Of a stretch of DNA of 64,000 nt, positions 5,024-62,740 are shown piece after piece (within the stretch, counting starts at the first letter, position 1; each line of letters opens with the position of its first letter). Source of the DNA: Eledone cirrhosa. Lineage: Eukaryota. Both the position numbers and the translations under genes were made by a program. The notes beneath the pieces were generated by a model, which saw nothing but the letters and a program-made list of their open reading frames with translations, did not search any database and was not told where the DNA came from. The stretch is taken from positions 108,190,001 to 108,254,000 of the forward strand of contig OZ024744.1 of the NCBI GenBank assembly GCA_964016885.1. Reading direction: 5' to 3'.

Positions 5024-8000
5024 TCTTCTGGTTTTATAATTTCACAAATTTTTTCCCAATAAAGATAGAGTCGGTTTCTAACATAGACACAAGACTCTCT
5101 CATTGGAATTTACACAACATCAACTAGGTAGAATATGTATGCATGTGTAGATATGGATGTTATTGTATGTGTGGATGTGGATCTTTTGAGTTGTATGTGT
5201 GCATGTGTATATGCATCTGTACATGTGTATATGCAGTTATTAGATGCAAAATGTTTGGAATGTTTTACATATTTTTACTGTTCCATTAATGGATTGTACT
5301 TGTAATTTCCTAACCAGTTATGTTCTTTCTGTTCCTGTGAAGCCTAGCTTCTAAAGATTTGTATTGAGGCAGTTACTAACATACTCCAGTGCCCCAATAA
5401 TCACAGGCATAAATCTGAAGGTGTAATCAGGGTGGAGTATCTGCAGATTTCTCATCAGTTCTGCATAAATATTCTCCTTTTCGCTAATCTTTGATATTAT
5501 TTTGGCATCTGCTGGGCAGCTAATTTCCACTACTGTGCATGCTTTCTTCTCCCTGTCCCATATCATATCTGGTCTGTTATGCCTGCATTTTATTGGGGGT
5601 TTTACTGGAACATTCCACCAGTACTCTTTCATATTATGTACATGGATGTCTTCCACATTGCAGTAGCTTTTAATGTGTTTATTATCGGGGCTATCTTTTT
5701 TACGAACTGCATTGTACAGTGTTTTGGCCACTACATCATGCCTCATAGGTAGATAGTACCGCGATGACATCTTTGGACAGCTGCTGATGACATGGGTGAT
5801 ATCCTCGATTTTAGTTCTGCAGAGTCTGCACGTGTTATCACATCTAGGTGTTTTGCCTGCATCCCTATCTCTTTTGTGAATCAGGTATTTCGTGCTAATC
5901 TCCTGTTCTTGGATTGCAAAAGCGTATCCTTCAAAGTGGGAGCCAATATAGCGGTTGTTGGTCCAAGATAGACTACTTTCTTTATCTATATTACTCTCAC
6001 TCTGCAGCTTCCTGTCAACATATCCATGCATGATTTTTTGCTGATAAGCATGCAGCTTTTCATCCATGGATTCACTACGATAATGCTGAGCGACTTCCCT
6101 GGGTGTGAGTTTTTGATTATCACACAGGGAATCTCTCTCGAGGAGTTCCTTCCCAACTCTCATGATCTTATCTGTTTCATGCAGATATACTTGCTCGAGA
6201 AACGGGCTCCTACGCTTCGAGGTTCGTAGATGTTGTCGGAGAGATATGATACGACATTCAAATGCTGTCTGGACTGATGTTAGGCCTCTGCCTCCCTGCT
6301 TACGTTTCAAGTAAAGGCGGTCTATGTCACTGTTGATGTGGAAGTTTCCGGTGTTGTTCAGTATTTTTCGAGTTCCAACATCAACTGCTCGGATTTCGTC
6401 TATCGTTCAATTGAGTATTCCAAACGTTGGTGTTAGGACAGGCACAGCAAACACATTGTGAGCCACTGTTTTGTTTTGCGCAGGGAGTTCCGATGACCAG
6501 ATCTTTCTTAATCGGGTGTAGTATTCCCTGGTTACGCGTTCTTTATTACAGATACCATTATAGGATATGTTCTCATCTATCCCCAGGTATCTGTAGCAGT
6601 CCTCATCAGATATCGGTGAAACAGTTAGGCCATTGATGACAATGTTGCTAGATTGGGTTGTTGTTTTTCCCCGCTTTACAGTCACGTATGAGCATTTATT
6701 TTGGCCAAACTCCATTCCTATATCCTTTGAGAACGTTGTAACCAGGTCAAGATTTTTCTTCATCCCATCCATGTTCTTGGCATAGAGTTTCAGATCATCC
6801 ACAAAGAAATTATGGGTTAGGTTCGTATTTCTGTCCTCCTGTGAGCCAATGTATCCTTCACATTTCTTGAGCAGAAAGGACAAGGGGTTTAATGACAAGA
6901 TGAATAATATCACAGAGAGAGACTGTCCCCCTGAAATATACCCCTGCAATATTTTATTTTATCAGTGAATATAGAGTCCTCCCTCTCTGTCTTTAACCTT
7001 AGGATAGTAGCCCAAGAAGAAGACAACCTCTCTATGGCTCTGACAATAATGTCTGGGACTTTAGCAAGTTGGAGGGCCTCTATCATCCAAGAGTGGGGAA
7101 CAGAATCGAAAGCTTTCCTGTAGTCCAGCCAGACTGTAGCCATATTCCTCCTAAGTTGTCGCACCTCCGACATCGCAGTTTTGTTGATTAGGAGTTGTTC
7201 AGCACATCCCCAAACCCCTTTCTTTCCAGCTGCTTGTTCATCTGTGATGATGTTATTATTTTCACAGTGATATTGGAGGAATAGGTTCAGGCAGGCTGTA
7301 TACATCTTATACATCAGGTTCTGGCATGCAATGGGTCGGTAGTTTTTTGCCAAGTGGGCGTATTTGTTCTTGGGGACCAGTATTGTTTGTGCTAATGTCA
7401 ACCATTCTGGTATAAGTGTATCTCCCTTAAGAACTTGTTGGTAGAGGTCAGTAAAATACCTCCGATATAATATCAGTTTTTTGTACCAGTAGCCGACAAT
7501 CATGTCTCTTCCTGGTGTTTTCATATCTTGGAGATTTCCTATCACAGTCTCATGGGTACCCTCACTTATTTCGCATGTTTTTGTTGTAGTGTAGTCTCTT
7601 AGCCACACTGCATCTTGGTTGAAATTCTTCTTTTCACCCCATATTTTGCTCCAAAAGGAATCTATGTCTTTCTGGGATGTCTTTCAGTGACACTTATTAT
7701 TTTGTTCTTCATATCTCTATAGACTGATGTTTGGTTTCGTCTGAAGCACTTTTCTTTCATCTACCTTCTTCGGGTATCGGCGTTTTCGCTAACAGCTCTC
7801 AATTCTTGTTTGAGGGTGATCAGCTTATATTGAAGGCTTCTGGTTCTACTGTTACCAAACATCGTCTCTATTTTATTTTTCATTCTTTGTTGGCGAGGAG
7901 TGAGGTTTTTTTGTGTTTGTTTGCATGTAAGGAGCATTGTCACATATCCTATGGTTTTTCGTAGGTCAGCAATCTTTTTTCCTATTTTAGTTATATATGA

Positions 8001-12448: not shown

Positions 12449-15400
12449 CTACAGGATGGTATACAGAGAAGGCCCATTTACACGAGCCATTCTCGCCACT
12501 ATCACCCACCTTTCATAAAACTGGCTGTGGCCAAGCACCTCTCTCTCCATTCTTATCCTTCTTCCGAAGTGATATCGGAAGAAGTAGACCAGACTATGGC
12601 CAGAGAGGAAGTTGCCTGACCTCAGACCTTTCAATCGTGTCCACCAAACAACCTCTTTCATCATGGCTATTACGCACAGAAAAACCGCCTTTGCTTCCTT
12701 TGTGAAGAGGGGAGGCGGTTTGATTGTCATCACGGACTCGGCGGTCAATTTAATCGGCGCCACCCGCGACAGCAGTCGTTCGGCGTAGCCCCACAGATCA
12801 TCCACGCCCGGACATTGCACCAATGCATGCGCAACGGTTTCTTCGTGACGCACGCATCTAGGGCAAATCTTTTTCGAGGGATCCCTGCCTGGGCGCCCGT
12901 GTCTGTAGAGCTTTTCTCGAACGGGTAGAGCCCCCCGGTAGCACTGCCAGGCCAGTGACTTCTGGAAGTTGTCCATTGGTCCCGGGCCGAAAGTCCTACC
13001 GAACAGGTTGGCCAGTTCGTCCTCTTCCATGTCCAGCGACTCTCCAAGGGTGTCATCGCCCCTGCTAGACACCAGCCCTCTATAGAATGACGAGGTGGAT
13101 TCTCCACCGATCGCCGGGTCCGCTTGCCAGATAGCCCTGAGCGCCTGGGCACATTCAGTGTGCCAGTCGTCCAGTTTTCCGGATCTTTGCTTGACCCAGG
13201 ATTGCAGCTCGGTGAGCGAGACGAGTCTCGGAAAGGCTCGTCTCACGAACGGAGCCCACACCGGTTGACCAGTGAGGAATACCTGTAGGTGCCGTAGCCT
13301 TAATGCGTGCCTACGCATCATCAACCACGGCATCCCCAGCCCTCCTTTCGAAGGTTGTTGGCAGCAGATGGATCTTCTCACCATAGGAGGGCGCTTCTTC
13401 CAAAGAAATTGAATGAGCATGCGTTCCATGGTGGTAAGTGTTTCCTTAGGGCAAGGCACGACAATCAGGCGGTAGTAAGTGACGGACGCTATGTAAATGT
13501 TCGCCACCTCCGCCCGACCTTTTAGGGACAGCTTACCCTTGGCCCATTTCTGGGTTAGTGCAAACACATTGTTCGTAACCTCGCCCCAGTTCTTTTCCAC
13601 CTGGAGGTCCGGTCCAAACCAGACCCCAAGCAACTTCACCGGGCCCTCCGTCCAGTGTCCGATGGCACCGTCGGGAGGCATCGGTCTGCCTCTCCACGTT
13701 CCGAGTTGCAGCCCGATGGATTTTTCCCGGTTCAGTTTCGCTCCTGACAACCTTTCGTATTCCTCCAGTAAGGTACCGATCGCCTCGATCTCCGAGTCGG
13801 TCGATACCATTACTGTTACGTCATCGGCGTAGGCCGACACCGCTTTGCTCAATCCTGGTTCCAGGGGGATCCCTGCAACAACTCCAACTTCCTCAGTAAA
13901 GGCTCGAGAGTCAATACGTACAGAAGGGAGGAGAGAGGGCACCCCTGTCGAATGGATCGTGTGATTTCGAACGGCTTCGAAAGGTAGCCGTTCACCTTGA
14001 TCCTAGAACAGATGTGGTTGTTATGTAAGGCAGTGATCCAGCCTCTGAAAACAGGACTGAACGCAGCCGCCGCTAGCACCGCATCCAGGTAACCATGGTC
14101 GACCCTATCGAACGCCTTAGACTGATCCAAGTTGATCAGGGCCCCACCGAAGCCGGGTTTGTTGCCAACACTCTCTATGATGTATCGCATGAGGTGGAGG
14201 TTGTCGTGAATGGACCTGGATGGGATAGCACATGTCTGCGCATCTCCCACCAGGCCACCCACGACAAGCGCCAACCTCTTTGCTAACACCTTGGCCAAAA
14301 TCTTTAACTCTGTGTTTAGCAGGGTTATGGGCCGAAAATTATTTATACTATCCCCCTTGTTCTCGTCCTTCCTCACCAGCGAGACTACGCCTTTGGCTAC
14401 AGAACAAGGAATTCTCCCGTTCTGCTGCCAATTGCAGTAGACTGTTTCGAGGAGTTCGGAGAAGAAGACCGGCATTTCTAAATAAAGTTCGTAAGGTATA
14501 CCATCGAGACCTGGAGATTTGCGTCTGCTGCATTGGCTCAGCGCATCCCCGATCTCATCAGCCGAGATTGGTCCCTCGCAGGACTCTGCCTCTTCGCTCG
14601 AGAGACGCGGCAGGTATGGACCGAAATCCACGTCCCCGCCCGGACCCTCGCCTCCCCCGAACAATCGGGCAAAGTGCCTTTGAAAGGCCTCGCACATCTG
14701 CTTAGGCTCCTGGATCACCCGTCCATCCTCGTCTTGCAAAGACCGGATGGTGGATCGATTTCCACTCTTAGCTTCTGTCACGCGGGCCCAGCCAACGGCT
14801 TTGGCCCCCTCATTACCTAGAGCACGTATTTTACTTCGAATGACGCAGCCTTCGTGCTTTGCATCGAAAAACTGGCTCAAGGCCGTCATCGATGCCAGTA
14901 CTCTGGCCACATCTTCGCTCTTGATTGCCTCTTCTAATTTACCTGTTAATTATTTCTCGTTCCTATTCCTACCGGCAGCTAACATCTTGCTATAACTTAT
15001 TGATTCTGTTCTAATCTCTCTTTTGAGAGATGCCCACCATCGGTTGTTGACGATTGCACCCGTCAACCTCTCATTAACTAATCTGCTAATCCGGTTTCTG
15101 TAAGCCTCTTTTGCCGGTAAAGACAAATTAAGTTTCCAGTAACCGGGACCCTGTCTATGTGTTTTCTCGAGATTGACTACGCAGGTCACTAATTTGTGAT
15201 ATGTATAGTCAACCGTGAGCATTTCTGGACAGCTTAATATGTCCCTATCCTTACTTCAAACTAAGAATCTATCTAAGTACGCTCTATATTGACCACTGTG
15301 GTTCGTCCAAGTCCAGGTTGGCACAGTTGGAAAATCTAGTCGATATCTATCGACCAAGTTAAAACGGTCGAGTAGCCCCTTAAGGCTGTTACACCCCCTC

Positions 15401-15875
15401 TATTAGGACATGCTCCTGCATAGTCCCAACGTGCATCTAGGATGTCATTCCAATCCCCCACTAGAAGCAGGGAACGCGACGTTCCCAGAAAAGTCTCCAG
15501 ACGCTGGAAGAAGTCGGGTCGTTCAGCTCCGAAAGGGGAGTAGACGGCGACCAGTCTCAAGGCCGGACCTCCACTACTGCCAACGTCTAGCACCAACAAA
15601 TGACCTTCCGGGTCCGAGTGAACAACCTGTACGGCGAGACCCAGGTGTTTTTCCAGCAGTACGACAACCCCACTCCCACCTCCAGGTTGACAGAGAGATG
15701 CATGCACCTCAAAGTCATCAAAGGTAGGGGCCAGCTGCCGCACGACGCTGATCCGAGTCTCACAGATAACCATTACATTTATACCACGTGACCTGAGGTC
15801 ATTTAGAAGCTTTGCTTGCTTCCAAGTTGAGCCCAGGCCACGTGCATTCAAACATCCTACTCTTAACACATCCAT
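12449..15875 (-). pseudogene. Tx1-like ORF2 (APE endonuclease-RT-zf), disrupted
   Basis: ORF pieces 15336-15875, 14950-15222, 13849-14910, 12449-13942 in colinear domain order. Confidence 0.9.
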
Positions 15876-15999
15876 GTGGGCGGCAAAGCCAAAGGAGAAT
15901 GTAGAGACCTACCTTTCTGCTTCCCGGGGTTCGGGTCGCACGACTTCCATGGGGTCGGGGCTGTTGGGTGAAGGGGTGTCTTTTGGTGGTGTGGGGTCG

Positions 16000-24851: not shown

Positions 24852-25157
24852 ATAAAATATTTTTTCTCGCACATATCCTCCCTTCGTTAATTTTCAAATT
24901 TTTTTTAATTTATACACTATCTTCCAACGGTTTTCAACCTCTCTATGTAAAACAATATATCTCCTCTCAGTTATAAAAACTATCTCTTTCTCTCTATCAC
25001 CCATCTCTCCCTCTCATCTCCTTCCCTTTTCACCCCCCCCTCTCTAAATAAAATATTTTTCCCAATATCACACATCAATCTAAAACCACTTTTCATATGT
25101 TGATTTAAAACTGCACTATCCACAAGTGTTTTTTAGCCTTCATATCATGTTCTCCTG

Positions 25158-25224
25158 TTTTATCTGATGAAAACACAAATATTATTGCATGATGATGTTT
25201 GTTTTTGAAATGCGCATAATAAAA
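25158..25224 (+). ncRNA. Type I hammerhead ribozyme
   Basis: ttttat-CTGATGA-aaac..gttttt-GAAA-tgcgca-TA-ataaaa. Confidence 0.7.
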
Positions 25225-25256
25225 TACATGGAACTCCTTTAACCATCTTTTGATCT

Positions 25257-25298
<42 letters not shown>

Positions 25299-25304
<6 letters not shown>

Positions 25305-28212
25305 GTTAAAGATGTACATCCATATATGTATACTGAAATACTAGTATGTATATGAATACACACACGTATACATATGTAGGTGTACCAAGTTTTTTCACTG
25401 GTCACTTTACTGTGAGTGGCCAGCTATTCTGTATGTAAACACACAGACAAACCGGTTTTTAGAGTCATACTGGTTTTTGAGGAAACACCTCTCCTCTATT
25501 CTCCAGAAAGCCAGACAAGGAATATTGAACTAGTTTCGTTGTTGTTACAACTCATCAGCAATATTTACCTATCTTCCGGCCTCTCTAGAGAATCGTAAAA
25601 GCACATATCGTTATATGCTTTTTCTATGAAAATTAGTAGTGGGCAGACTAATTTGCATAGAGTGTGAGTAAGTACCGGTTCAACGGAGACGATAAAAACA
25701 AATAACGAAACGAAATTAAATTTCGTTTCGTTTGTAACTCACTTTTGTATGACTGACGCTTAAACAATTAAGTTAAAGATGTACATCCATCTATGTATAC
25801 TGAAATACTAGTATGTATATGAATACACACACGTATACATATGTAGGTGTACCAAGTTTTTTCACTGGTCACTTTACTGTGAGTGGCCAGCTATTCTGTA
25901 TGTAAACACACAGACAAACCGGTTTTTAGAGTCATACTGGTTTTTGAGGAAACACCTCTCCTCTATTCTCCAGAAAGCCAGACAAGGAATATTGAACTAG
26001 TTTCGTTGTTGTTACAACTCATCAGCAATATTTACCTATCTTCCGGCCTCTCTAGAGAATCGTAAAAGCACATATCGTTATATGCTTTTTCTATGAAAAT
26101 TAGTAGTGGGCAGACTAATTTGCATAGAGTGTGAGTAAGTACCGGTTCAACGGAGACGATAAAAACAAATAACGAAACGAAATTAAATTTCGTTTCGTTT
26201 GTAACTCACTTTTGTATGACTGACGCTTAAACAATTAAGTTAAAGATGTACATCCATATATGTATACTGAAATACTAGTATGTATATGAATACACACACG
26301 TATACATATGTAGGTGTACCAAGTTTTTTCACTGGTCACTTTACTGTGAGTGGCCAGCTATTCTGTATGTAAACACACAGACAAACCGGTTTTTAGAGTC
26401 ATACTGGTTTTTGAGGAAACACCTCTCCTCTATTCTCCAGAAAGCCAGACAAGGAATATTGAACTAGTTTCGTTGTTGTTACAACTCATCAGCAATATTT
26501 ACCTATCTTCCGGCCTCTCTAGAGAATCGTAAAAGCACATATCGTTATATGCTTTTTCTATGAAAATTAGTAGTGGGCAGACTAATTTGCATAGAGTGTG
26601 AGTAAGTACCGGTTCAACGGAGACGATAAAAACAAATAACGAAACGAAATTAAATTTCGTTTCGTTTGTAACTCACTTTTGTATGACTGACGCTTAAACA
26701 ATTAAGTTAAAGATGTACATCCATATATGTATACTGAAATACTAGTATGTATATGAATACACACACGTATACATATGTAGGTGTACCAAGTTTTTTCACT
26801 GGTCACTTTACTGTGAGTGGCCAGCTATTCTGTATGTAAACACACAGACAAACCGGTTTTTAGAGTCATACTGGTTTTTGAGGAAACACCTCTCCTCTAT
26901 TCTCCAGAAAGCCAGACAAGGAATATTGAACTAGTTTCGTTGTTGTTACAACTCATCAGCAATATTTACCTATCTTCCGGCCTCTCTAGAGAATCGTAAA
27001 AGCACATATCGTTATATGCTTTTTCTATGAAAATTAGTAGTGGGCAGACTAATTTGCATAGAGTGTGAGTAAGTACCGGTTCAACGGAGACGATAAAAAC
27101 AAATAACGAAACGAAATTAAATTTCGTTTCGTTTGTAACTCACTTTTGTATGACTGACGCTTAAACAATTAAGTTAAAGATGTACATCCATATATGTATA
27201 CTGAAATACTAGTATGTATATGAATACACACACGTATACATATGTAGGTGTACCAAGTTTTTTCACTGGTCACTTTACTGTGAGTGGCCAGCTATTCTGT
27301 ATGTAAACACACAGACAAACCGGTTTTTAGAGTCATACTGGTTTTTGAGGAAACACCTCTCCTCTATTCTCCAGAAAGCCAGACAAGGAATATTGAACTA
27401 GTTTCGTTGTTGTTACAACTCATCAGCAATATTTACCTATCTTCCGGCCTCTCTAGAGAATCGTAAAAGCACATATCGTTATATGCTTTTTCTATGAAAA
27501 TTAGTAGTGGGCAGACTAATTTGCATAGAGTGTGAGTAAGTACCGGTTCAACGGAGACGATAAAAACAAATAACGAAACGAAATTAAATTTCGTTTCGTT
27601 TGTAACTCACTTTTGTATGACTGACGCTTAAACAATTAAGTTAAAGATGTACATCCATATATGTATACTGAAATACTAGTATGTATATGAATACACACAC
27701 GTATACATATGTAGGTGTACCAAGTTTTTTCACTGGTCACTTTACTGTGAGTGGCCAGCTATTCTGTATGTAAACACACAGACAAACCGGTTTTTAGAGT
27801 CATACTGGTTTTTGAGGAAACACCTCTCCTCTATTCTCCAGAAAGCCAGACAAGGAATATTGAACTAGTTTCGTTGTTGTTACAACTCATCAGCAATATT
27901 TACCTATCTTCCGGCCTCTCTAGAGAATCGTAAAAGCACATATCGTTATATGCTTTTTCTATGAAAATTAGTAGTGGGCAGACTAATTTGCATAGAGTGT
28001 GAGTAAGTACCGGTTCAACGGAGACGATAAAAACAAATAACGAAACGAAATTAAATTTCGTTTCGTTTGTAACTCACTTTTGTATGACTGACGCTTAAAC
28101 AATTAAGTTAAAGATGTACATCCATATATGTATACTGAAATACTAGTATGTATATGAATACACACACGTATACATATGTAGGTGTACCAAGTTTTTTCAC
28201 TGGTCACTTTAC
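25299..28212 (-). mobile_element. 467-bp tandem array (about 6.2 units), each full unit with a hammerhead on the minus strand; retrozyme or PLE pseudo-LTR concatemer
   Basis: Units start at 25299, 25766, 26233, 26700, 27167, 27634, 28101 (partial); near-identical; HHRs at 25521-25565 plus n x 467. Confidence 0.9.
25521..25565 (-). ncRNA. Minimal type I hammerhead ribozyme (also 25988, 26455, 26922, 27389, 27856)
   Basis: aatattg-CTGATGA-gttgt aaca acaac-GAAA-ctag-TT-caatatt; 7-bp stem I, 5-bp stem II, palindromic minimal stem III, GUU site. Confidence 0.88.
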
Positions 28213-29403
28213 CTCAAAAACCAGTATGACTCTAAAAACCGGTTTGTCTGTGTGTTTACATACAGAATAGCTGGCCACTCACAGTAAAGTGAACAGTGAA
28301 AAAACTTGGTACACCTACATATGTATACGTGTGTGTATTCATATACATACTAGTATTTCAGTATACATATATGGATGTACATCTTTAACTTAATTGTTTA
28401 AGCGTCAGTCATACAAAAGTGAGTTACAAACGAAACGAAATTTAATTTCGTTTCGTTATTTGTTTTTATCGTCTCCGTTGAACCGGTACTTACTCACACT
28501 CTATGCAAATTAGTCTGCCCACTACTAATTTTCATAGAAAAAGCATATAACGATATGTGCTTTTACGATTCTCTAGAGAGGCCGGAAGATAGGTAAATAT
28601 TGCTGATGAGTTGTAACAACAACGAAACTAGTTCAATATTCCTTGTCTGGCTTTCTGGAGAATAGAGGAGAGGTGTTTCCTCAAAAACCAGTATGACTCT
28701 AAAAACCGGTTTGTCTGTGTGTTTACATACAGAATAGCTGGCCACTCACAGTAAAGTGACCAGTGAAAAAACTTGGTACACCTACATATGTATACGTGTG
28801 TGTATTCATATACATACTAGTATTTCAGTATACATATATGGATGTACATCTTTAACTTAATTGTTTAAGCGTCAGTCATACAAAAGTGAGTTACAAACGA
28901 AACGAAATTTAATTTCGTTTCGTTATTTGTTTTTATCGTCTCCGTTGAACCGGTACTTACTCACACTCTATGCAAATTAGTCTGCCCACTACTAATTTTC
29001 ATAGAAAAAGCATATAACGATATGTGCTTTTACGATTCTCTAGAGAGGCCGGAAGATAGGTAAATATTGCTGATGAGTTGTAACAACAACGAAACTAGTT
29101 CAATATTCCTTGTCTGGCTTTCTGGAGAATAGAGGAGAGGTGTTTCCTCAAAAACCAGTATGACTCTAAAAACCGGTTTGTCTGTGTGTTTACATACAGA
29201 ATAGCTGGCCACTCACAGTAAAGTGACCAGTGAAAAAACTTGGTACACCTACATATGTATACGTGTGTGTATTCATATACATACTAGTATTTCAGTATAC
29301 ATATATGGATGTACATCTTTAACTTAATTGTTTAAGCGTCAGTCATACAAAAGTGAGTTACAAACGAAACGAAATTTAATTTCGTTTCGTTATTTGTTTT
29401 TAT
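28212..29403 (+). mobile_element. Inverted continuation of the 467-bp array (about 2.5 units)
   Basis: Reverse complement of the left array; junction cactttaC/Cctcaaaa; ends in (TA)n. Confidence 0.9.
28596..28640 (+). ncRNA. Minimal type I hammerhead ribozyme (also 29063-29107)
   Basis: aatattgctgatgagttgtaacaacaacgaaactagttcaatatt read directly on the + strand. Confidence 0.88.
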
Positions 29404-29420
29404 ATATATATATATATATA

Positions 29421-29519
29421 TAAAACAAGAAGTGTAAGACGACAGGTTAAAATTAACTTCGTTTATTGATATTCGCTGCGAAGTTAATTTTAACCTGTTG
29501 ACTTAAACTTCTTGTTTTA
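29421..29519. repeat. (TA)n-anchored hairpin (about 40-bp arms)
   Basis: taaaacaagaagt..caggttaaaattaacttcg pairs with cgaagttaattttaacctg..acttcttgtttta. Confidence 0.8.
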
Positions 29520-29609
29520 AATTACTCCGGTGGAATCAGACTCACCTGCACACTTCGTTGGGTGCTCTAAACTGTATACTGAAGTGTCGGTAAGCAACCA
29601 ACACATACT

Positions 29610-35560: not shown

Positions 35561-36076
35561 AGATAATTGAACCTAAAAAGAAATGTTTTGAAGATCCAAA
35601 ATGGAGAAAGCAGGCTTTGCTAACATCAATTTTTTGTACATGTTATAAAGATCCTTTTTTTTTTATATACCAGGTGTGCTTTTCGAATACACACACGCAT
35701 ATATAGATTGGCAGAGAGGTGAACAGTCCTAATGAAGTGTCATGACTCAGAAACAAGTTGACTGTTCCTCGATGCCAGTGTTGAACAAACAGATGATCAT
35801 GGGTCATCGGCACAGCATAACTTTGTTGGGCCGTTTGCTTGCAAACGAATCGAATATTAGTATTGATGTTCGATATAACCCATATGTATGTATATGTATG
35901 TATGATATAAATATATATATATATATAAATATATATTTAAAAGTTAAACAAGGTTCAATGAATAAATCAAAGAATGAGTTTTACAATAGATTGGAAGCAC
36001 TCAACAGTAATGGTTTTCCGGAGTTATTAATATTAATTCAAAATATTAACAAAATAGATATTCTTGTGATCAAGTA

Positions 36077-37249: not shown

Positions 37250-38790
37250 GGAAGGAATTATCTAAAGCTTTAAAGAATAGATTAGCGAGTGGTGTTTTTA
37301 TTGCTACAGAAGCGGGGGGGGGGGGCATATAACTGATTTAGTTCTGTTTTCTTTTCCCCGATTTATTCACAGAATTGGTGTTTGAATTATAATTTTTAGA
37401 ATTTCGTTTATACATGTCAGTCATATTATTATTTTTATCAGGATTATAATTCAAATTATTATTGTCTATATATTCTATATTATTTTTATAACCTGCCTTT
37501 CTTAGCGCATCATTGTAATATCCTGCTTTTTCATCAAATATTGATTTATTCGCAGATATTCTAGTTAGGCGTTTCTGTACACTATTGACAATTGCATGTT
37601 TCACAGATTTAGGGTGATTAGAGTAATAGCTAACGTAATTTAAGTTTTCATTGGGCTTATGGAAAGGGTAATAAAAACCTGAGTTTAAGTTAAGGGTTAC
37701 GTCAAGGAAATTAACTATTTTGGTACTACTTTCAACCTCTAATTTAAGGTCGTAATTTTTAAAGAATTCAATTATAGTTTTCTTAACCCTATTTAGTTCT
37801 GTATTGCTGTGTTTGACAACCGTAAATAAAATATCGTCACTATATAAACCACCGGTAATCTCCGGCAGTTTTCTATTTACCATATTTAAGATGAAAATCC
37901 CCAGAAGATCCGTGACCTGCGCTGAGTCCGATGATCCCATGGTAATGTCAAAGTTTCCATTCCTATCTGAACGGGTCCAATATTCATTGTTGAAATTAAT
38001 TAGAGTTCTTCTAGCAGTTAATATGATATCGATTTCATCCGTAGTTAGATCTGTATGCTTATAAGCGTAGCATAAAGCCTTATTTAATAGGTTAGGTGTA
38101 ATGGAAAAGTAATAGCTTGCTATGTCCATTTGGATGAATTTGTGGTTTTTCTTATCATCTATATTTTTAAACCAATCAATCACTTCATTGGTGTCCTTCC
38201 ATAAGCTCAATTTAGACCTCAATTTCAGAATAGGTAGAATTCTATCAATAATATTCTTACTGATTGATTACTCCAATATCCGATTTAGATGGAGTCTAAC
38301 TGACAGGTCTTCCTCAAAATTTCTTTTGTGATTCTTAAAATTTATCCTCGGCTGTCTAGGTATAAAAGGCTCGGTTCTTTCTTCAATTCCAAATTATGCT
38401 ATTAATGTATATGCATCATTATTGATGTCTGTAAGATCTTCGGCCGGGGCTTTTCTATAATTTTTCCTTAGTTCTTTTAAAATCAAATCATTATATTCAT
38501 TTTTATTTATCCCATATAAATTATTGGTTTTGTCCGACTTCACTAATATTTTATTAACTTTTTTTACACCCGAGATTTTTTCTTTTAGAGTTCTAAGGTA
38601 TTGGTGACCTTTATATGGGTTTTTCCTGAATTTAATTTTCTTAAGTATATTGAGCATTTCAGTTTCAAAATCCTCCAGGAGTTTGTTGTATGGAGGATAT
38701 ATATTGAACTCTCTTGCTATATCCCCAAGGGGAAAACACAATCAACCATAGGCGGCCATCTTTGTTTTCCATTTTTCTCATCATAGGCTG
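37250..38790 (-). pseudogene. Penelope-like reverse transcriptase, disrupted
   Basis: KSDKTNN, FIQMDIASYYFSI, FDITMGSSDSAQVTDL, GLYSDDIL, VNFLDVTL, HKPN..YV..SNHP. Confidence 0.88.
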
Positions 38791-48013: not shown

Positions 48014-48074
48014 TATTTTATTATATATATTTCAAGGGTACCAGTATTTTAGTAGGCCCTCATCAGATAAAATA
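48014..48074 (-). ncRNA. Type I hammerhead (tattttat family), left arm of inverted pair
   Basis: Reverse complement nearly identical to 46532-46592. Confidence 0.78.
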
Positions 48075-49204: not shown

Positions 49205-51453
49205 ATATATATAAAAATGAATGTATGTTTGTTTGTTTGTCCAAAGATATAAACGGAGAAAGAGAAATCAACGTATAGACAAACAGAGAGTGAAAGAGCG
49301 AGTAGTCTGACTGCTTTGAACCACTCCCTATATTAGACTGTCTCTAAAGTTATAAACGGAGAAAGAGAAATCAACGTATAGACAAAGAGAGAGTGAAAGA
49401 GCAACGTATAGACAAAGAGAGAGTCCTATAAACGGAGAAAGAGAAATCAACGTATAGACAAAGAGTGAGTGAAAGAGCGAGTGTGAAATTTTTTTAATTA
49501 AAGATTATTTCAATAGAATTAGTATTCTCTCTTTAATTTAATATAATTTCAATAGAATTAGTAAATTCTCTCTTTAATTTAATATAATTTCAATAGAATT
49601 AGTATAGTGTCTGTTTCACATTACTTCACTTCCACTCCCATTACAGGGAATTCTTTTTCAGCTAGCTCTTAACTAAGTGCTGTAATTTGATATCTTCATT
49701 TCGTCTGTCCTTATTTTCCTGACCTGGACATAAACCAACAGCTTATCTTCCCTACCTTTATCTCTATAGAAGTTACTACTTATTTCTTCATCCTTTTCTT
49801 TTAGTCTATGTATCTATATAGAGTTTTTTCCTGTTTTTCATCATTTCTCCATATACCGTTTCTGGGTTTCCTTTTTAATACCTTGGTGTTTTGATATTCT
49901 TAAAATATTATAATACCTTGGTGTTTTAATATTCTTAAAATATTATATCTCTCTTCCACTATTATCACTAGAATTTCTACTCTAGCTATCTTATAGCCAA
50001 TCACTAGAATTTCTACCCTAGCTATCTTATAGCCACTAACTGCTGTAATTTGATATCTTCATTTCGTCTGTCCTTATTTTCCTGACCTGGACTTACACCA
50101 GCAGCTTACCTTCCCACCTTTATCTCTATAGAAGTTACTACTTACTTCTTCATACTTTGGTTTTATATTTTTAGTTTTATTACCCTACCACATAAACAAT
50201 GATCACTTATAATACCATGATCCATTTTCCTTATATACTGTAATTTTCTGATGAAGGACTGAGGTACGTGTTATTTTGTCTGAATAATTTGTATTATTTT
50301 CACTCTGTTTTTACAATTGTTTATATCATCAATCAACACATACATATTGGTTATGACTCCTTCTACATTTCGATTACATTGAGTTCTTCATACGTATTTC
50401 CCACTACTTCTCATTTCGGTAGAGTGATTGTGATAAAATATTTTCTATTCAATTATGCCTCCCAAACGACGAGCGATTGGTCAATCTACCCCTCAAGCAA
50501 CGAAAAAATATGCATTACGAGCTTCAGAAACATACGAGCAACGGGAATCACGATTGGAAACCGTTCGAGTAAGAACTGCTCAAGTCCGTTCATCTGAAAC
50601 ATACGAGCAACGGGAAGCAAGATTGCAAACCGTTCGAGTAAGAACTGCTCAAGCCCGTTCATCTGAAACATACGAGCAACGGGAAGCAAGATTGCAAACC
50701 GTTCGAGTAAGAACTGCTCAAGCCCCTTCATCTGAAACATACGAGCAACGGAAAGCAAGAGTGGAAACGAATCGACTACGCAATGCTCTCACAAGAAGAA
50801 TACTGCACGATGATTTCAATCTTGGTGCATTTCATTACGATTCAAATTATGATTACAGTCTTCATCCAAGTGTGATTATTGGAAAAATGGATAAATTATG
50901 CGGGTATTGTGGTGCCCTCAAATTTAAAAATGAAACACCAGGAATGTGCTGCTCGGGTGGAAAAGTGAAATTGCCAGAATTACATCCACCACCTGAACCA
51001 TTATCAACGTTAGTATCAGGTGACACAAGCGAATCTAAACATTTCTTGGCAAACATACGCAAGTACAATTCATGTTTCCAAATGACATCGTTCGGTGCAA
51101 CAAATATCGTGCGCGAGAGTGTGGACTAAATTTAGAAAATCCATGCTTCTCACATGGACAGCTGTATGTGGCTTGCTCACGCGTCGGTAAACCTTCTGAT
51201 TTATTCGTGTACGCACCAGAAGGAAAAACAAAAAAACATTGTGTATCCAAAAGCACTTCAGTAAAACAAATTAAATGTTCTTATAACGAATTTTCTTTAA
51301 ATTCGTCAGTCATTCAGTCATTTAAAGATAAATGTTAAAATCTAAAAAATAGAAACTAAATTACAGAAGTTTTTAAATAACGATTAAAATGTTAATATTA
51401 TTCTTTTCTAAATAAGCTTTTTAACACTGAGCGAAGCCGGGTAGCTCCGCTAG
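49205..51453 (+). mobile_element. Internally deleted Helitron
   Basis: RepHel N-terminus fused to helicase C-terminus (CFSHGQLYVACSRV); 3' hairpin ctgagcgaagccggg then CTAG-t; internal tandem duplications 49250-50150. Confidence 0.88.
50455..51129 (+). CDS. Truncated Helitron RepHel N-terminal region (69-bp coding repeats, zinc-finger-like motif)
   Basis: MPPKRR NLS-like start, SETYEQREARL repeats, CGYCGALKFKNETPGMCCSGGKV, FLANIRKYNSCFQMTSFG. Confidence 0.8.
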   Translation: MPPKRRAIGQSTPQATKKYALRASETYEQRESRLETVRVRTAQVRSSETYEQREARLQTVRVRTAQARSSETYEQREARLQTVRVRTAQAPSSETYEQRKARVETNRLRNALTRRILHDDFNLGAFHYDSNYDYSLHPSVIIGKMDKLCGYCGALKFKNETPGMCCSGGKVKLPELHPPPEPLSTLVSGDTSESKHFLANIRKYNSCFQMTSFGATNIVRESVD

Positions 51454-54052: not shown

Positions 54053-54941
54053 ATTAGTTCACCATACCGAGTTTCACCTTAGCGGATCCTCAGCTCGTAA
54101 TGGACATGGTTATACGAGACGACAGGAAGGACAACCGTACGAACGCGCATGCGCAGAAACGGTAACTTCACTCAGGCAATACTAAATTGCGTGCGAGAGG
54201 TGCAATGGAGATAACTGCGAAAGTCCGAAAGTTTCTAGTTGATAAGAAAATTAGGATGTTGTAATTCAATCCGGAGCTTTGTAGTTATGCAACAGGTGTT
54301 TCCAAACGTGTGGACAACGTGTGAAGAATTCATTTCTTGAGTTTAGGCAATCGCTATTGTCTAATCTCTTTAGAATATTTATTCGTTCATCAATACATAG
54401 TCCACACGACGGATTTCCCCTTGCGTATGGCTTGGACTTAGTGATGGCTTTGCATTGAATGGCGTAGTCTATACTTGAGTCCTTGAGGGACCATACGTAG
54501 CTCGCGAGTTTCGAGGATGAACGTCTGTCCGGGTACATAAAGGTCGACTGGTGGTTCAGGAAGCGTTCCTTAAATCGGCCCTCCGCCATACCCACATAAG
54601 ATTTGACCTCCTGTGGTTGATTTGGTCGGTTGGAAGTGACCACAGCTTCATAAACTACAGCGGGTGTGTTGCATTGCTGTTGAAGGGGACAAGCTTCGGG
54701 CTTACGGCAAGAGCACCCTGGTGGGGTGTTGCTCTTAGGGCTGTTGGTGATGTGGGCCTTCATGTTCTTAGCGCAGGAGTATCTTAGTTTTACTTTGTGT
54801 CGGTTAAAGATGGAGCCGTATTTATGACCTATGGGAAAGTGTCTATCTAAGAGGGCTAGAAATTTTGTTCCGTAAAACCATGTCCATTACGAGGTGAGGA
54901 TCCGCTAAGGTGAAACAATTGTTCTCGGTATGGTGAACTAA
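54053..54941 (-). mobile_element. 5'-truncated Penelope-like element with inverted terminal (pLTR) segments
   Basis: ttagttcaccataccgag..tttcaccttagcggatcctca.ctcgtaatggacatggtt (54053-54110) inverted at 54876-54941, enclosing the GIY-YIG ORF; whole block between (TA)n tracts. Confidence 0.85.
54266..54870 (-). CDS. GIY-YIG endonuclease domain of a PLE (open, 5' truncated)
   Basis: CSCRKPEACPLQQQC, VVYEAVV..YVGMAEGRFKERFLNH, CGLCIDE, LNSRNEFFTRCPH. Confidence 0.85.
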
Positions 54942-57269: not shown

Positions 57270-57456
57270 AGGAATTTATAGTTTGAAAGCGGAATGGACA
57301 GATAAATAAACAAGTCGGTTGAAACAAAAAGTGTTTTTACCATAATTTATTTATATAACCTGATATTTTGAGATTAAAATATCTTCTTCCGAGGAAAATA
57401 AAGGGACTATTCCAGTATCCGATGCGGCACGCTATATCCCCTGCTGGCGGAAGTAG

Positions 57457-57493
<37 letters not shown>

Positions 57494-57495
<2 letters not shown>

Positions 57496-59107
57496 GCTCG
57501 GCACCGCTCTCAAGGAATACGAAGCGGTGACGGGAGCAAAGATAAACCAGGAAAAGTCGGTGGGCTTGCAGCTCGGCATATGGAGAGGAAAGTCCATGCC
57601 GTCCGACAGCGTCGTGGGGCGTTGGACGGACGGATCGGACGGGGTCTGGTTCGGACCGGACCTCCAGATGGAGAAAAACTGGAGCGAGGTGACGAACAAG
57701 GTGGCCTCCTTCACCCAGAAATGGGCCGACAGGAAGCTGTCCTTGAAAGGCCGGGTGGAGTTGGCGAATGCGTACATCGCATCCGTCATCTGTTACCGCC
57801 TCACCGTCGTCCCTTGCCCCGGCTCAACTCTCACCAAAATGGAGCGCCTCCTCTTCCGTTTTTTGTGGAAGGAACGCGCTCCCATTGTCAGACGATCCAT
57901 CTGCTGTCAACACCCGTTGCGTGGAGGACTGGGCATGCCATAGCTGATGATGCGCAAACATGCGCTGAGGCTGCTACATCTCTGGTGCTTCCTTGACGGT
58001 GAGCAGGTGTTGTCGCCGTTCGCCAGGCACGTTTTCCCACAGCTCGTCTCCTTGACGGAGCTGCAATCCTTGGTCAGGAAAAGACTGAGGGATAGCGCCT
58101 GGAAACTGGAATGTCTCCAGGCGTTCACTGCCCTCTGCCAGCTGGGCACCAGTGTCGGTGGAACATCCACCTCGGCGTTCTATAGAGGACTAGTGGAGGG
58201 GAAGAGCGACGACGTTCTCGGAGAGATCCTGGGCGTCGAAGAAGATCAGCTGTTTGCTCTCTTCCGGAGGCCTTTCAGCCCAGGGCCTATGGATAACTTC
58301 CAAAAGTCCCTGGCCTGGCAATGTTACCGGGGAGCGCTGCCGGTTCGAGATAAGCTCTACAGGCACGGAAGTGCCGTCAGCCGAGCCTGTCCGAGATGCG
58401 CGCAGAGCGACGAAACCGTCGTGCAGGCACTCGTTCAGTACCCGAGCATTGCTGACTTGTGGAGCTATGTCGAACAGTTGCTGTCGCGTGTAGGACTGAT
58501 CCGGTTGTCGACTGAGTCCATTGTGCAGATGGTCTCGCCGTCTTCCTTCGAGGAGGAAGGACAGGCGGTTCTCATCTGCCTGGTGGCCATGGGGAAAGAG
58601 ATTGTGTGGTGGACAAGATTGAAAGGGTTAAAGACAGATACTTTCCTCTTCGGCGAATCCCTAATTAACTTTTTCAAGTTTCACTTGAAGAGGAAAATCA
58701 GGGTGGAGAGGCAAGTGCTGCTTTCTAGCAAGTTTGTTGAAAGGTGGGTGAATGTAGCAAGAATGGTCCGAGTGAACGGGACCACTCTGAATATACGCTT
58801 GTAGTTTGAGGAATGGGAAAACATTGAGAGAGGGCGCTTGCCCTGGTGGTCAGGGTGGCCGTGGTCTTTTGTGTGGTTTTCGCCACGAGTAACCCTCGGA
58901 GGTTTCCCCCCTATTGGGGAATTTTTCATTGTTTCAATTTTCATTTTTATTGTTTATATATATATGTTTCTATGTGCTTTTTTTCTTTTCTTATATAAAT
59001 AATAAAAATATTTACACGCACAAAACCCACATTGTACCGTCCTGTACCGTCCTGTGCCGTCTGTAATGTTTTTCTTGATGTCAGCCCTTGTGGCCAATAA
59101 AGAAATC
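57494..59107 (+). mobile_element. 5'-truncated Tx1/L1-like LINE in (ATT)n
   Basis: ORFs 57368-57943 and 57947-58804 closely resemble 12449-13942 (GPMDNFQKSLAWQCYRGALPVR); shares the 3' end aataaagaaat. Confidence 0.9.
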
Positions 59108-59122
59108 ATTATTGTTATTATT

Positions 59123-62100
59123 GTTCTTTGAGTCTCGGTCATTGATGTTAGTTAACTGGAAAGTTTGTTGAAATGAATATCAAGCCACTACCTGCAGCTT
59201 CAGATATTCAGGACGTATCGGAGGGTTCTTGCTGTTCCCAGCAAGCATGCCTTTTGAAGTGTTCCAAAAATCGGGGCGGGGCCAATTTTCTTTAACCATC
59301 CCTGGAAAATTTTGGAGATAGTCCCCAGTGCGCCTATGACAATCGGGATCACTTTGACTTCATGGCAGTTCCAAATCCTTTTTACCTCCCACTTTAAGTC
59401 CTAGTATCGGTTAATTTTCTCCCTCTCCTTCTCTTGCACTCTCGTGTCAAATGGGCAGGCCACATCCACAATCAAGCACGATCTTTTTTCCTCGTCCAAA
59501 ACCACCAGGTCAGGCCTATTGCGTTCTAGTTTCTTGTCCGTCTGTATCCTAAAATCCCATAGCACCTTCACCTGATCGTTTTCTATCACCGACTCTGGCT
59601 TATGCTCATACCACTTCTCAGAATGTGGTAACTTGTTTACTTTGCATAGGTGCCAGTGGATCACCCTGCCCATCACATCATGTCTTCAACCTTTATAGTG
59701 AGTCTGGGCTAGGTGTTTACACTCGGATACAATGTGAGCCACAGTCTCCTCTCTCTCTCCACAGATCCTGCACAGTGGGCTAGCCTCCTCCTTGTAAATA
59801 TGGTGTTTCAACCACTTCGTTTTGAGGGCCTGCTCTTGCGCAGCCATTAGCATTCCTTCTGTAGCCTTTTTAAGGTCTCCTCTTTTCAACCAGTTCCATG
59901 TCTGTGGATCTCTGAATTCCGTTTTCTCAAAGAAGGTACTATGAAGGGATTTTTCCTGAAGGCTGCTCTTTCTCCTTGTTGTTATTTCCTCCTTGGACAT
60001 CTCCTGGTCTATTGTCCCCTCCTTCAGTACAGTTCTGAGCGTTGGCTCCCTACTATCAGTCACGTATTTGTGTAGGTTGTTTTTCTCCATCTGAACACAG
60101 TCCTCTATGCTGATAAGACCTCTTCCACCCTCAGATCTCCTTAGGTAGAGTCTATCGACATCACTCCTCTTGTGGAACATCTTGTAGATAGTCAATAGCT
60201 TCCTAGTCTTCCTATCCATTTCTTTTTGTTCAGCAACATTCCATCTCAGAATTCCCGCACTGTACCTAATAATAGACACACCTCGGGATTGACTGCACTT
60301 ATGGCATTCCTACTGTTCAGCTGTGACTTTAATACGCCCCTTACTCTCCTAATGTACTCAGATCTTATCAATTCCTTAATTTTTTTTTGTTATTGATGTC
60401 ATCAGCCTCCAGAATACCCAAATACTTGTATCCTTCTTCAGTGTCAATTTCCTTTATCATCTCATCTGTTGGTACCTGGATTCCGTTACTTCTGCTCAAC
60501 CTACCCCTCCTCATCACAATGACTCCACATTTACTAATACCAAATTGCATACATATATCATTTCTGAAAATACGGACAGTGTCAACAAGCACATCCAACT
60601 TCTTCTCACTCTTCCCGAAGAGCTTAAGATCGTCCATGAAGAGGAGGTGATTGATGGTAAGCTCTCCCTTTCCCAACTTGTATCCTGCTCTCATTTTTCG
60701 CAGTATAATGGTCAGGGGCATCAGGGCAAGGACAAACAACAGAGAGGACAGACTATCTCCCTGGAAGATACCTCTCTTGATCTTCACGCCTCCCAAGGAT
60801 TCTCCAGTTGATGTTAACTCTGTTTTCCAGGACTTCATACTTTTGCTCAACAACTGTCTGATGTTATCTGCCACCTTGAAGATCTCTAGGCTTTTGGTGA
60901 TCCAAGAATGAGGCACCATGTCAAATGCCTTTTTGTAGTCTATCCATCCCATGGCAAGACCAGTGTGTCTCCTCTTGCAATTCCTCATTACCATCTAATC
61001 AATAAGTAACTGGTCCTTTGTACCACGTGACTTCTTTCGGCATCCTTTCTGTTCGTCCGGTAACAAGTTGTTTGTGTGGAGGTGATGGTAGATTTCCTCA
61101 GACACAATGCTTGTCAACAGTTTCCACATTACGGACAGACATGTGATAGGTCTATAGTTGGCAACATCATTACCCTTGATTCGGTCTTTCATTATCAGAA
61201 CTGTGGTACCTTTTGTCAACCACTCTGGTACCTCACCTGACATCAAGCAGTCATTGAACATGGTTGTCAGTTTCGGGTGGAGAGATTTTACATTTTTAAT
61301 TCAATACCCCTGCACACCATCTGGGCCTGGTGATTTCCAGTTGGTTAGTTTTTTGGCCTGCCCCTTAAGAGTTTCAACTGTGATACTCAAATCAGTTTGT
61401 TGGTGTGCCTGTTCACTAATCTCCTTTTGTACTGTCTCAATCCACACTGCCTGGTCATTATGTTTAACATCCTGCTCCCATATTCCTCTCCAGAATGTCT
61501 TAGTTTGTTCCGCCTCAGGGATCAAGTCGTTGCCTCTTTCTTTCTCTTCAAGCTGTCCAAACAACATCTTCTGGTTGTTGTCAAACATGCGGTTCTGTCT
61601 ATACTGACTGACTCTGCTCTCGTATCGCCTAATTTTTGCACTCTTTGCTACAATGCGTTGCTTCAGTTCCTCTATGATAATATTTAGCCTTTTTCTCCTA
61701 GTTTTGTTCTTTATTTCCAGTCTATTTTTAGTGTCTATGTTTTTTAGTGTCCCATTCAGTAGGGACTCAACTTTCCAATGTCATTTCTCATTTCCCTTAT
61801 TTGACCATTCAGTCGTTTCTTCCACCAAGGTTCTGATCTTTCTTGTTTGTTGTTTCCTCTCGCTTTTATGCTAAGTAATTTCCTCACCGCATTTGCTGTT
61901 GCTTTGAGGATATTGTTGCATTGGTGAAGGCTACCCGCCTCAAGGTATGGGATGACTTTGTTTACCTTAGCTGTTGTTTCTTTTAACTTTTTCCTGTCTA
62001 CAAATCTTAGGTTCATAGGTTTCCCACTATCATTGTTCAATTCATCTACCACTAAGTTTAGGATATCAACCAAATCTTGTCCTAGCCCGTCAGCATTCAT

Positions 62101-62740
62101 CTCCTCAGTGGCCATATCTCTGTTCCAGGTATTATTTATCTCAGCATTCAGATCATTGTCTGCTTTGGGTGGTTCCTCCGTTCTCTCGACCTCTTCACCT
62201 TCATTTCCCACTGGCTCGTTTGCCTGGCATACTCCACTCTCCATCTCCAAGCTAATCTCTCTGCTCAGTTCCTCCAGTTCCAGCTCGCTTATCCACCCAT
62301 TAGTTCTAATTACCCGAACCTGCCCGGCCAATTTTTGTTCATCTAATTTAAATAGACCAATCTCGTTCCAGATGTTATGCATCCGTTTCCTATAGCCTTT
62401 CTCCTTGGGGTTACTCTAACATTACACAACAGTTTTATTCAATTCTTTCGTTCAGTTGGTTCTGGTCCCTTTCGTTCTTCTTCCTCCGACACCAGCAGTA
62501 TTTGGTTGACAGCCAGGTCCCTGCTGCTGAGCCAGGGAGCACCTGTTGGGTGAGAGTCTGTCACATGACATTCTAGTCTCCATTTCACCGTTATTCAAAC
62601 TGTTTAGGTTCGACATTTAAACACTGTTATCGAGGATTGGCGAATGTATGGTTACATAACCACCGGTGATTTCATCACCTCCGGTGATTTCGTCACTCCC
62701 GGTGATTTTTGTGTGGCATTATCACGCTGTAGACGAGCAT
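59123..62740 (-). mobile_element. Near full-length, disrupted R4/Dong-clade RLE LINE
   Basis: KSPGPDG, NYRPITC, WIDYKKAFDMVPH, GIFQGDSLS, FMDDLK, CRIC..ETVAHIVSEC, RPD..IVDVACP; TAA-like 3' tail. Confidence 0.9.

Follow-up and report, generated by a model that had tools for sequence, protein, structure and literature searches.

Most retrozyme insertions of the family described here are head-to-head inverted arrays whose outer ends fall at two fixed sites of a 467-bp unit, one site per end. We consider it probable, at about three chances in four, that the reverse transcriptase (RT)/GIY-YIG protein of a Penelope-like element (PLE), acting in trans, cuts both strands of (TA)n target DNA and primes cDNA at these two sites, A and B. 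The insertion ends carry the PLE signature directly, which goes beyond earlier arguments from co-occurrence and homology, and the rule of one site per end (51 of 52 loci) ties the start sites of RT in vitro to the inverted structures of PLEs. The same rule yields a sharp prediction for the existing in vitro PLE assay, and two-site priming would account, in a way open to test, for an inverted shape that has long gone unexplained. The value of the result rests on these insertion statistics; as a retrozyme family it is new but unremarkable.

The array lies in a stretch of 64,000 nucleotides of Eledone cirrhosa DNA (GCA_964016885.1, contig OZ024744.1, positions 108,190,001 to 108,254,000), referred to below as the window. 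TRF resolved 467-bp tandem repeats at 25299-28212 (period 467, 6.24 units) and 28212-29403 (2.55 units), the two arms being head to head, and a unit-by-unit comparison found exactly two departures from the reference unit, at 25791 and 28293. In the circularised unit no stop-to-stop frame exceeds 62 aa. An earlier note, made from the sequence alone, had described near-identical 467-bp units in a 6+2.5 head-to-head arrangement, eight complete type I hammerheads, a strand flip at 28212 with the ribozymes facing outward, (TA)n at both ends and no real ORF, and all of this was borne out. Unit phases are counted on the + strand, which is the cDNA strand, with phase 1 at window position 26233. The parts of the array are as follows.

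25257-25298, no strand: (TA)n target, left flank
25299-28212, ribozyme sense on the - strand: left arm, 6.24 units; its outer end at 25299 is phase 1, site B, without the tail
25521-25565, - strand: first type I hammerhead of the left arm; the hammerhead consensus places the cut between 25528 and 25527
25988-26032, 26455-26499, 26922-26966, 27389-27433 and 27856-27900, - strand: five further left-arm hammerheads, at 467-bp steps
28212, no strand: inversion joint where the two arms meet head to head; phase 112 adjoins phase 184 and 1 nt is shared (microhomology)
28212-29403, ribozyme sense on the + strand: right arm, 2.55 units; its outer end at 29403 is phase 394, site A, with the tail
28596-28640, + strand: right-arm hammerhead of type I, the first of two, with its cut predicted after 28633
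29063-29107, + strand: second type I hammerhead of the right arm
29330-29403, + strand: terminal 'tail' spanning sites B to A (phases 467-394), containing a 13-bp hairpin at about 29363-29391
29404-29422, no strand: (TA)n target, right flank; a target duplication is unreadable in pure TA

Each hammerhead consists of a stem I of 7 bp, CUGAUGA, a stem II of 5 bp, GAAA, a palindromic CUAG stem III and a GUU cleavage triplet. The eight copies in the window are identical and of type I. The left arm carries six, all on the - strand, and the right arm two, both on the + strand; they therefore face outward, and in both arms complete hammerheads recur in consecutive units at 467-bp steps. An Rfam scan of the window gave no matches at gathering thresholds. 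Pairing between two stem III regions would extend over 8 bp, with a computed energy of -8.0 kcal/mol, and such pairing is what the dimer model for these ribozymes requires, as set out in part of PMC4209133. Sister subfamilies show a compensatory change of a stem II pair and mostly have GUC instead of GUU at the cut, which indicates that the ribozyme fold is maintained through compensatory change.

The unit contains no ORF, and so lacks the RT and GIY-YIG endonuclease frame of an autonomous PLE. It is non-coding and free of LTRs, its sole terminal repeat being the unit itself, as in metazoan non-LTR retrozymes. The array resembles those retrozymes, as they are described in parts of PMC7229834 and bioRxiv 10.64898/2026.07.22.740005, in its tandem non-coding AT-rich units of a few hundred base pairs, in the single type I hammerhead of each unit, whose stem III is short and palindromic, in its dispersed arrays and in its coexistence with PLEs. 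There, dependence on PLEs has been argued from co-occurrence and terminal-repeat homology (PMC7229834; bioRxiv 10.64898/2026.07.22.740005, in part). In contrast, the case for a PLE made here rests on insertion ends. The retrozyme papers contain no insertion-end analysis in the parts consulted here, and the words 'inverted' and 'target site' are absent from the corresponding text of PMC7229834.

We searched the genome (3.0 Gb, 1,796 contigs) for further copies. The exact 45-nt ribozyme occurs 4,843 times, compared with none for a reversed control, and a one-unit query gave 234 matches, from 37 of the 288 candidates scored. Since the first 100 exact-ribozyme matches correspond to 27 loci, a rough extrapolation gives about 1,300 loci genome-wide. 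A variant ribozyme pattern that excludes the stem II of the window unit produced 4,243 additional matches; those fetched belong to sister subfamilies 87-97% identical to the unit and to one 425-nt relative that is about 69% identical. Six sequencing runs from four studies with four organism codes contain 63-83% of the words of the unit; contigs of four runs, with library type unrecorded, are informative for presence and ends only. The family is thus dispersed and multi-copy, and its fixed 3′ ends, variable 5′ ends and target duplications are signs of retrotransposition. The window array is a member of a young, non-coding non-LTR retrozyme family, new but ordinary as a family; the earlier note's description of a young, non-coding element held, and the element proved to be multi-copy.

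In order to determine where the insertions end, 80 loci were classified, with ends called on arms of at least 50 bp; an outward scan for 8-nt stubs miscalls ends in AT-rich flanks (e.g. L031, L037, L039 and L043). Three sets were used: the window with 35 stretches around 150 listed BLAST matches, a set biased to full units (set 1); all 27 loci from the first 100 position-ordered ribozyme matches (set 2); and 17 of 20 fetched stretches, hand-picked and mostly two-strand or multi-unit loci (set 3), which omits a distant relative and two ends of one long array that read B and A. Fifty-six loci were head-to-head, 23 were single-arm, one was cut by the fetched edge and none was tail-to-tail. Outer ends, on the RNA 3′ side, fell at phases 393-401 (site A) and 460-2 (site B). 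These windows together cover 19 of the 467 unit positions, and the sites lie about 70 nt apart and flank the hairpin. Where both ends of an inverted locus were called, one was A and the other B in 51 of 52 cases and both were B in the remaining one (L093); against independent choice, the excess of A+B has a binomial p of 1e-14. Four further inverted loci had one end off-site or uncalled. A one-sided tail with a head-to-head inverted 5′ part is what characterizes a non-autonomous PLE.

All 23 single arms had their 3′ end at a fixed site (A in 16, B in 7), and several of them (L045, L061, L069, L072, L082 and L083) carry a 12-17-nt inverted stub from the opposite site. The 27 loci of the position-ordered set included 15 A+B, one B+B and one with one end off-site. 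L061 and L062 resemble one duplicated locus; the others differ in joints and flanks and are therefore independent events. In contigs of run X1 the unit gives way to (TA)n at two points, 26626 (phase 394) and 26695 (phase 463). In other copies, whose start phases and flanks the earlier note had proposed to check, the ends lie at two fixed phases and insertion is into (TA)n.

The 425-nt relative has two sites of its own, about 51 nt apart. Among its 24 top-hit loci, 13 were inverted, nine of them A′+B′, four with one end uncalled and none with the same site twice, and 11 of 11 single arms ended at a site. Most of the 13-bp inter-site hairpin has been lost in this relative. The coincidence of shorter spacing with loss of the hairpin suggests that the A and B sites are defined by structure rather than by distance.

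In 43 of 50 A+B loci one flank or both consisted of pure TA. Ten A+B loci were impure on both flanks, and in nine of these a direct repeat of at least 10 nt was found, compared with 6 of 90 mismatched pairs. Four of the nine duplications were exactly 12 nt (mode 12), three were 14-16 nt and include bases common to the element ends, and two were 30 nt and sit in repetitive flanks. An AT-rich or (TA)n target with a short duplication is a further mark of a non-autonomous PLE. The common end bases and the spread of end phases would fit a target 3′ end that pairs over a short length with U-rich RNA at either site. Because target duplications enclose whole arrays, the arrays appear to arrive mostly ready-made, not to grow as satellites.

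Thirty-seven of 42 inversion joints were resolved, 11 with extra bases. Overlaps of at least 2 nt were seen in 15 of the 26 joints without inserted bases versus 18% of random joins (p 8e-6), and joint phases were scattered across the unit. Template switching at the ribozyme cut was not supported as a source of the joints, with 2 of 74 joint ends located there versus 3.5 expected.

The end signature, the (TA)n targets and the duplications make it very likely that the retrozyme is mobilised in trans by a PLE, as the earlier note had proposed. According to parts of PMC11167929, a PLE protein, predicted to be dimeric, acts on both strands of AT-rich DNA, which it cuts and extends, and its cDNA starts in vitro at two internal RNA sites, the interval between which equals the genomic tail; the passages on in vitro priming do not discuss inversions. 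An inverted copy on the 5′ side and a tail on one end have been described for PLEs (PMC8557442, PMC3846280, in part), and the former source, in the section concerned, calls the inverted structures undefined features of the PLE cycle.

A search of the genome for PLE RTs returned 53,373 first-look candidates. One coding element with RT, CxxC and GIY-YIG (L131) has, judged by eye, an inverted terminal repeat with one end short and the other about 90 nt longer, and three non-coding ribozyme-bearing inverted pairs, found in flanks and in the window, resemble its ends, also by eye. Two fragments in the window, which Pfam did not recognize, were assigned to PLEs by RT, CxxC and GIY-YIG motifs seen by eye in longer relatives. 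The search for a partner comprised tblastn of these two fragments against the window and loci L031-L106, extension of three loci (two single-arm, one inverted), the ribozyme-variant pattern and a masked-flank profile search. It returned sister and distant retrozyme families without a coding partner, and among the fetched loci and the window no coding PLE had terminal repeats like the 467-bp unit.

The retrozyme insertions share with endonuclease PLEs (Penelope/Poseidon, Neptune, Naiad) the head-to-head inverted 5′ copy, a tail confined to one end, a pair of internal start sites, targets that are AT-rich or (TA)n and a hammerhead upstream of the tail, as far as these are described in parts of PMC8557442, PMC3846280 and PMC11167929; target duplications are 8-12 bp in those PLEs (same sources) and about 12 bp in the retrozyme. 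Unlike them, the retrozyme has no ORF, the entire element is the repeated 467-bp unit, and both arms can be many units long. The tail is about 70 nt versus 30-40 nt in the PLEs as described, and the rule of one site per end is counted here, whereas the PLE papers, in the parts concerned, say that the tail is often at one end. Literature searches of open-access main texts turned up no count of retrozyme insertion ends and no account of PLE inversions in terms of priming at both start sites, and 'twin priming' does not occur in the main PLE and retrozyme papers that they listed.

In L1 twin priming the second target strand primes on the RNA, which gives a 5′ inversion with a microhomology joint inside the target duplication. 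The first L1 primer lies at the poly(A) end and the second at an arbitrary internal site. In the retrozyme, by contrast, both primers would lie at fixed internal sites, and the template would be repetitive or circular.

We propose the following course of events. Retrozyme arrays would be transcribed, and paired hammerheads would be likely to release 467-nt monomers that become circles, with multimers probably used too. A PLE protein would cut AT-rich DNA with a stagger of about 12 nt, as the observed duplications suggest. The two target 3′ ends would pair over 0-5 nt with U-rich RNA beside the folded 70-nt element, and two same-sense cDNAs would start at A and B; these positions are observed, and together with the in vitro PLE data they point to priming there. 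Each cDNA would then extend through many ribozyme sites (observed lengths begin at a few nt and exceed 13 units), so that the template would be a circle or an uncleaved multimer. Finally, the cDNA 3′ ends would join by microhomology at varied positions to give an array whose arms stand head to head and of which only one end carries a tail, an order of events that we infer.

The lengths of the two arms bear on this scheme. Of 51 loci, 19 had the longer arm at B and 32 at A, and the difference reached 14-fold or more (for instance 446 versus 6,360 nt, and 4,489 versus 1,656 nt), so neither the A arm nor the B arm can in every case be the copy. Long single arms end at either site, and at L037, L063 and L090+91 variants carried by more than one unit of an arm have no counterpart in the opposite arm. 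Since either arm may be longer, single arms end at either site and variants are unmirrored, the counts favour two primings, with inversion as the normal product of insertion. The single snap-back or template switch put forward in the earlier note is not supported by these observations, nor by the inversion of 56 of 80 loci with ends at two different sites in 51 of 52. Correlation of arm lengths, tried as a sign of simultaneous synthesis, was not supported in sets 2 and 3 (rho 0.06 in sets 2 and 3, n=29; rho 0.31 for all 51 loci).

Two-ended PLE priming could also take place on an uncleaved linear multi-unit transcript, or on two RNAs, with ribozyme and circles uninvolved in insertion. This alternative differs from the proposed course only in the release of monomers and in the template that each cDNA is copied from, and we give it a sizeable minority chance. 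Slow cleavage is predicted from a GUU triplet and a minimal stem III. Minimal PLE ribozymes have low activity in vitro (PMC4209133, in part), eight of nine Xenopus retrozyme dimers were uncleaved in vitro (bioRxiv 10.64898/2026.07.22.740005, in part), and PLE insertion in vitro did not require ribozyme cleavage, unprocessed RNA being the dominant substrate (PMC11167929, in part). Arms of up to 6,360 nt (L032), and longer in L094+50, cross many ribozyme sites, so a cleaved linear monomer cannot be the template.

The units themselves argue in both directions. For 31 loci with at least three units each, the median unit difference was 0.67 within loci versus 7.5 between loci, and at L077 both arms together contain 18 identical 468-nt units. 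A private haplotype was rejected as proof of a circle: the L077 haplotype is present at 7 loci, so that the transcript of a uniform linear source array explains the uniformity equally, and several source arrays are possible for uniform haplotypes. Variants recurring with a period of 2, 3 or 4 and subfamily switches within single arms misfit a pure monomer circle and favour the linear transcript. However, a new haplotype that has become fixed in all units of a long array implies passage through a single unit that was then multiplied again. The maintenance of the ribozyme fold also counts against a role for uncleaved RNA alone, and metazoan retrozymes are reported mainly as circles in the part of PMC7229834 concerned. 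On balance we lean towards the use of a circular template; some arrays were probably enlarged later by unit duplication or conversion. A same-register test gave no support for priming at adjacent sites of a single RNA molecule: unit-restricted variants common to both arms were in the register expected of adjacent sites on one linear RNA in 9 of 31 cases and in another register in 22, nine of these from one locus.

It is unlikely, in our view, that a single target-primed cDNA folds back or primes itself, the PLE endonuclease then trimming the second arm at the other site. Endonuclease-mediated resolution has been offered for the PLE tail (PMC8557442, in part), and self-priming has been deduced from palindromes at PLE inversion joints (PMC3846280, in part). 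In nine of 37 joints the connected phases are no more than 25 nt apart (p 0.016), two of these joints being in the hairpin of the tail, and the order of events is invisible because AB and BA are the same by strand. Joints between close phases are, however, also expected from microhomology at local hairpins, and the other 28 connect distant phases. Self-priming is also at odds with the many-fold excess of either arm, with single long arms that end at either site and with unmirrored multi-unit variants, and it needs extra steps; moreover, the tail ends are start sites of RT in vitro (PMC11167929, in part).

An origin as a satellite, from PLE terminal repeats by unequal crossover and DNA inversions, or as a fold-back artefact of assembly is very improbable and already largely refuted: local tandem amplification of PLE termini has been proposed (bioRxiv 10.64898/2026.07.22.740005, in part) and periodic variant blocks suggest some post-insertion expansion, but near-identical arrays are dispersed, with fixed complementary ends, a single inversion polarity, different joints, target duplications around the whole array and the same two ends in the independent run X1. 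The artefact that the earlier note had named as an alternative is excluded by the same architecture at many loci with different joints and target duplications.

Two-site priming on the retrozyme may have a wider bearing. PLE inversions and one-sided tails in general could be the outcome of one event, in which an asymmetric, probably dimeric RT-endonuclease, seated to either side of a folded RNA element, primes one target strand at each of two fixed sites and, in the case of the retrozyme, two polymerases roll simultaneously along a 467-nt circle. We offer this tentatively, as a proposition somewhat short of even odds. If it is true, the 467-nt RNA is a minimal ready-made substrate with which to demonstrate general two-site PLE priming.

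We also noted several properties of the unit. The octamer ATGCAAAT is conserved in 14 of 15 aligned units and lost in the expanding L077 lineage; by its likeness to newt satellite 2, it was considered as a possible snRNA-type promoter, and a literature search found no paper on an octamer promoter of the newt satellite 2 type. Identity in the tail is 96-100% in comparisons that give 87% over the whole unit, but its variable sites (28 of 74) are no fewer than elsewhere in the unit. A 497-nt contig of run X4 closes on itself, which fits a circle and a tandem equally. The circular fold of the sense unit, a point in favour of the ribozyme and the circle, has a z of -8.6 versus 60 shuffles, with a long stem that holds the cut ends, and the antisense strand also folds well (z = -6.0).

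Within the arms of several arrays (L047, L051 and L094+L050 in the searched genome), the units change partway from one subfamily to another, giving two subfamilies per arm. Such a change suggests that the template was switched, that multimers were mixed, or that conversion took place. Periodic variants, recurring every 4, 3 or 2 units, were found in L057, L090 and L135; multimer templates and post-insertion duplication are offered as alternative sources. Very long arrays were located at G000:C1:5738326-5752444 and G000:C24:19447000-19460016, with 31 ribozymes in one arm and an arm that measures 12.8 kb or more.

The octamer ATGCAAAT lies at sense position 108-115 of the unit (e.g. L134:4117-4541). 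Of 15 aligned units, 14 retain it, among them the 425-nt relative of ∼69% identity. It is altered in the L077 lineage. The octamer is possibly a promoter element, or simply a stem.

Other hammerheads and coding remnants in the window are as follows.

25040-25255: second element with a hammerhead ribozyme, its core at 25164 on the + strand
36135, - strand: type I hammerhead, PLE terminal-repeat type
46540, + strand: the same type
47140, - strand: the same type
48066, - strand: the same type
48163, + strand: the same type
37341-38267, - strand: PLE RT fragment
54269-54886, - strand: PLE GIY-YIG fragment
5351-7683, 12449-15908, 57359-58804 and 59686-62415: broken non-LTR retrotransposon frames

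The (TA)n that hosts the array is also the terminus of the element at 25040-25255. Copies of this element with 95-98% identity occur at L039, L061, L062 and L070; short and long ends are likewise present in it, and at L070 it continues beyond its long end into additional sequence. The hammerheads at 48066 and 48163 are arranged head to head as a small pair, long at one end and short at the other.

Immediately right of the array, 29422-29520 forms a long imperfect hairpin (-49.6 kcal/mol), of which no further copies were found among the family loci fetched for comparison. A degraded, distantly related version of the unit (profile E 1.3e-9) lies at 35668-35902, where it adjoins the (TA)n end of a PLE.

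The PLE RT fragment gave 53,373 first-look candidates genome-wide, and L130 and L131 carry near-full RT frames. Three fragments tested from the non-LTR frames matched RVT_1. A further frame at 50437-51129, which we take to be Helitron-like, contains STPR repeats (PF21107), and its tail is C-rich.
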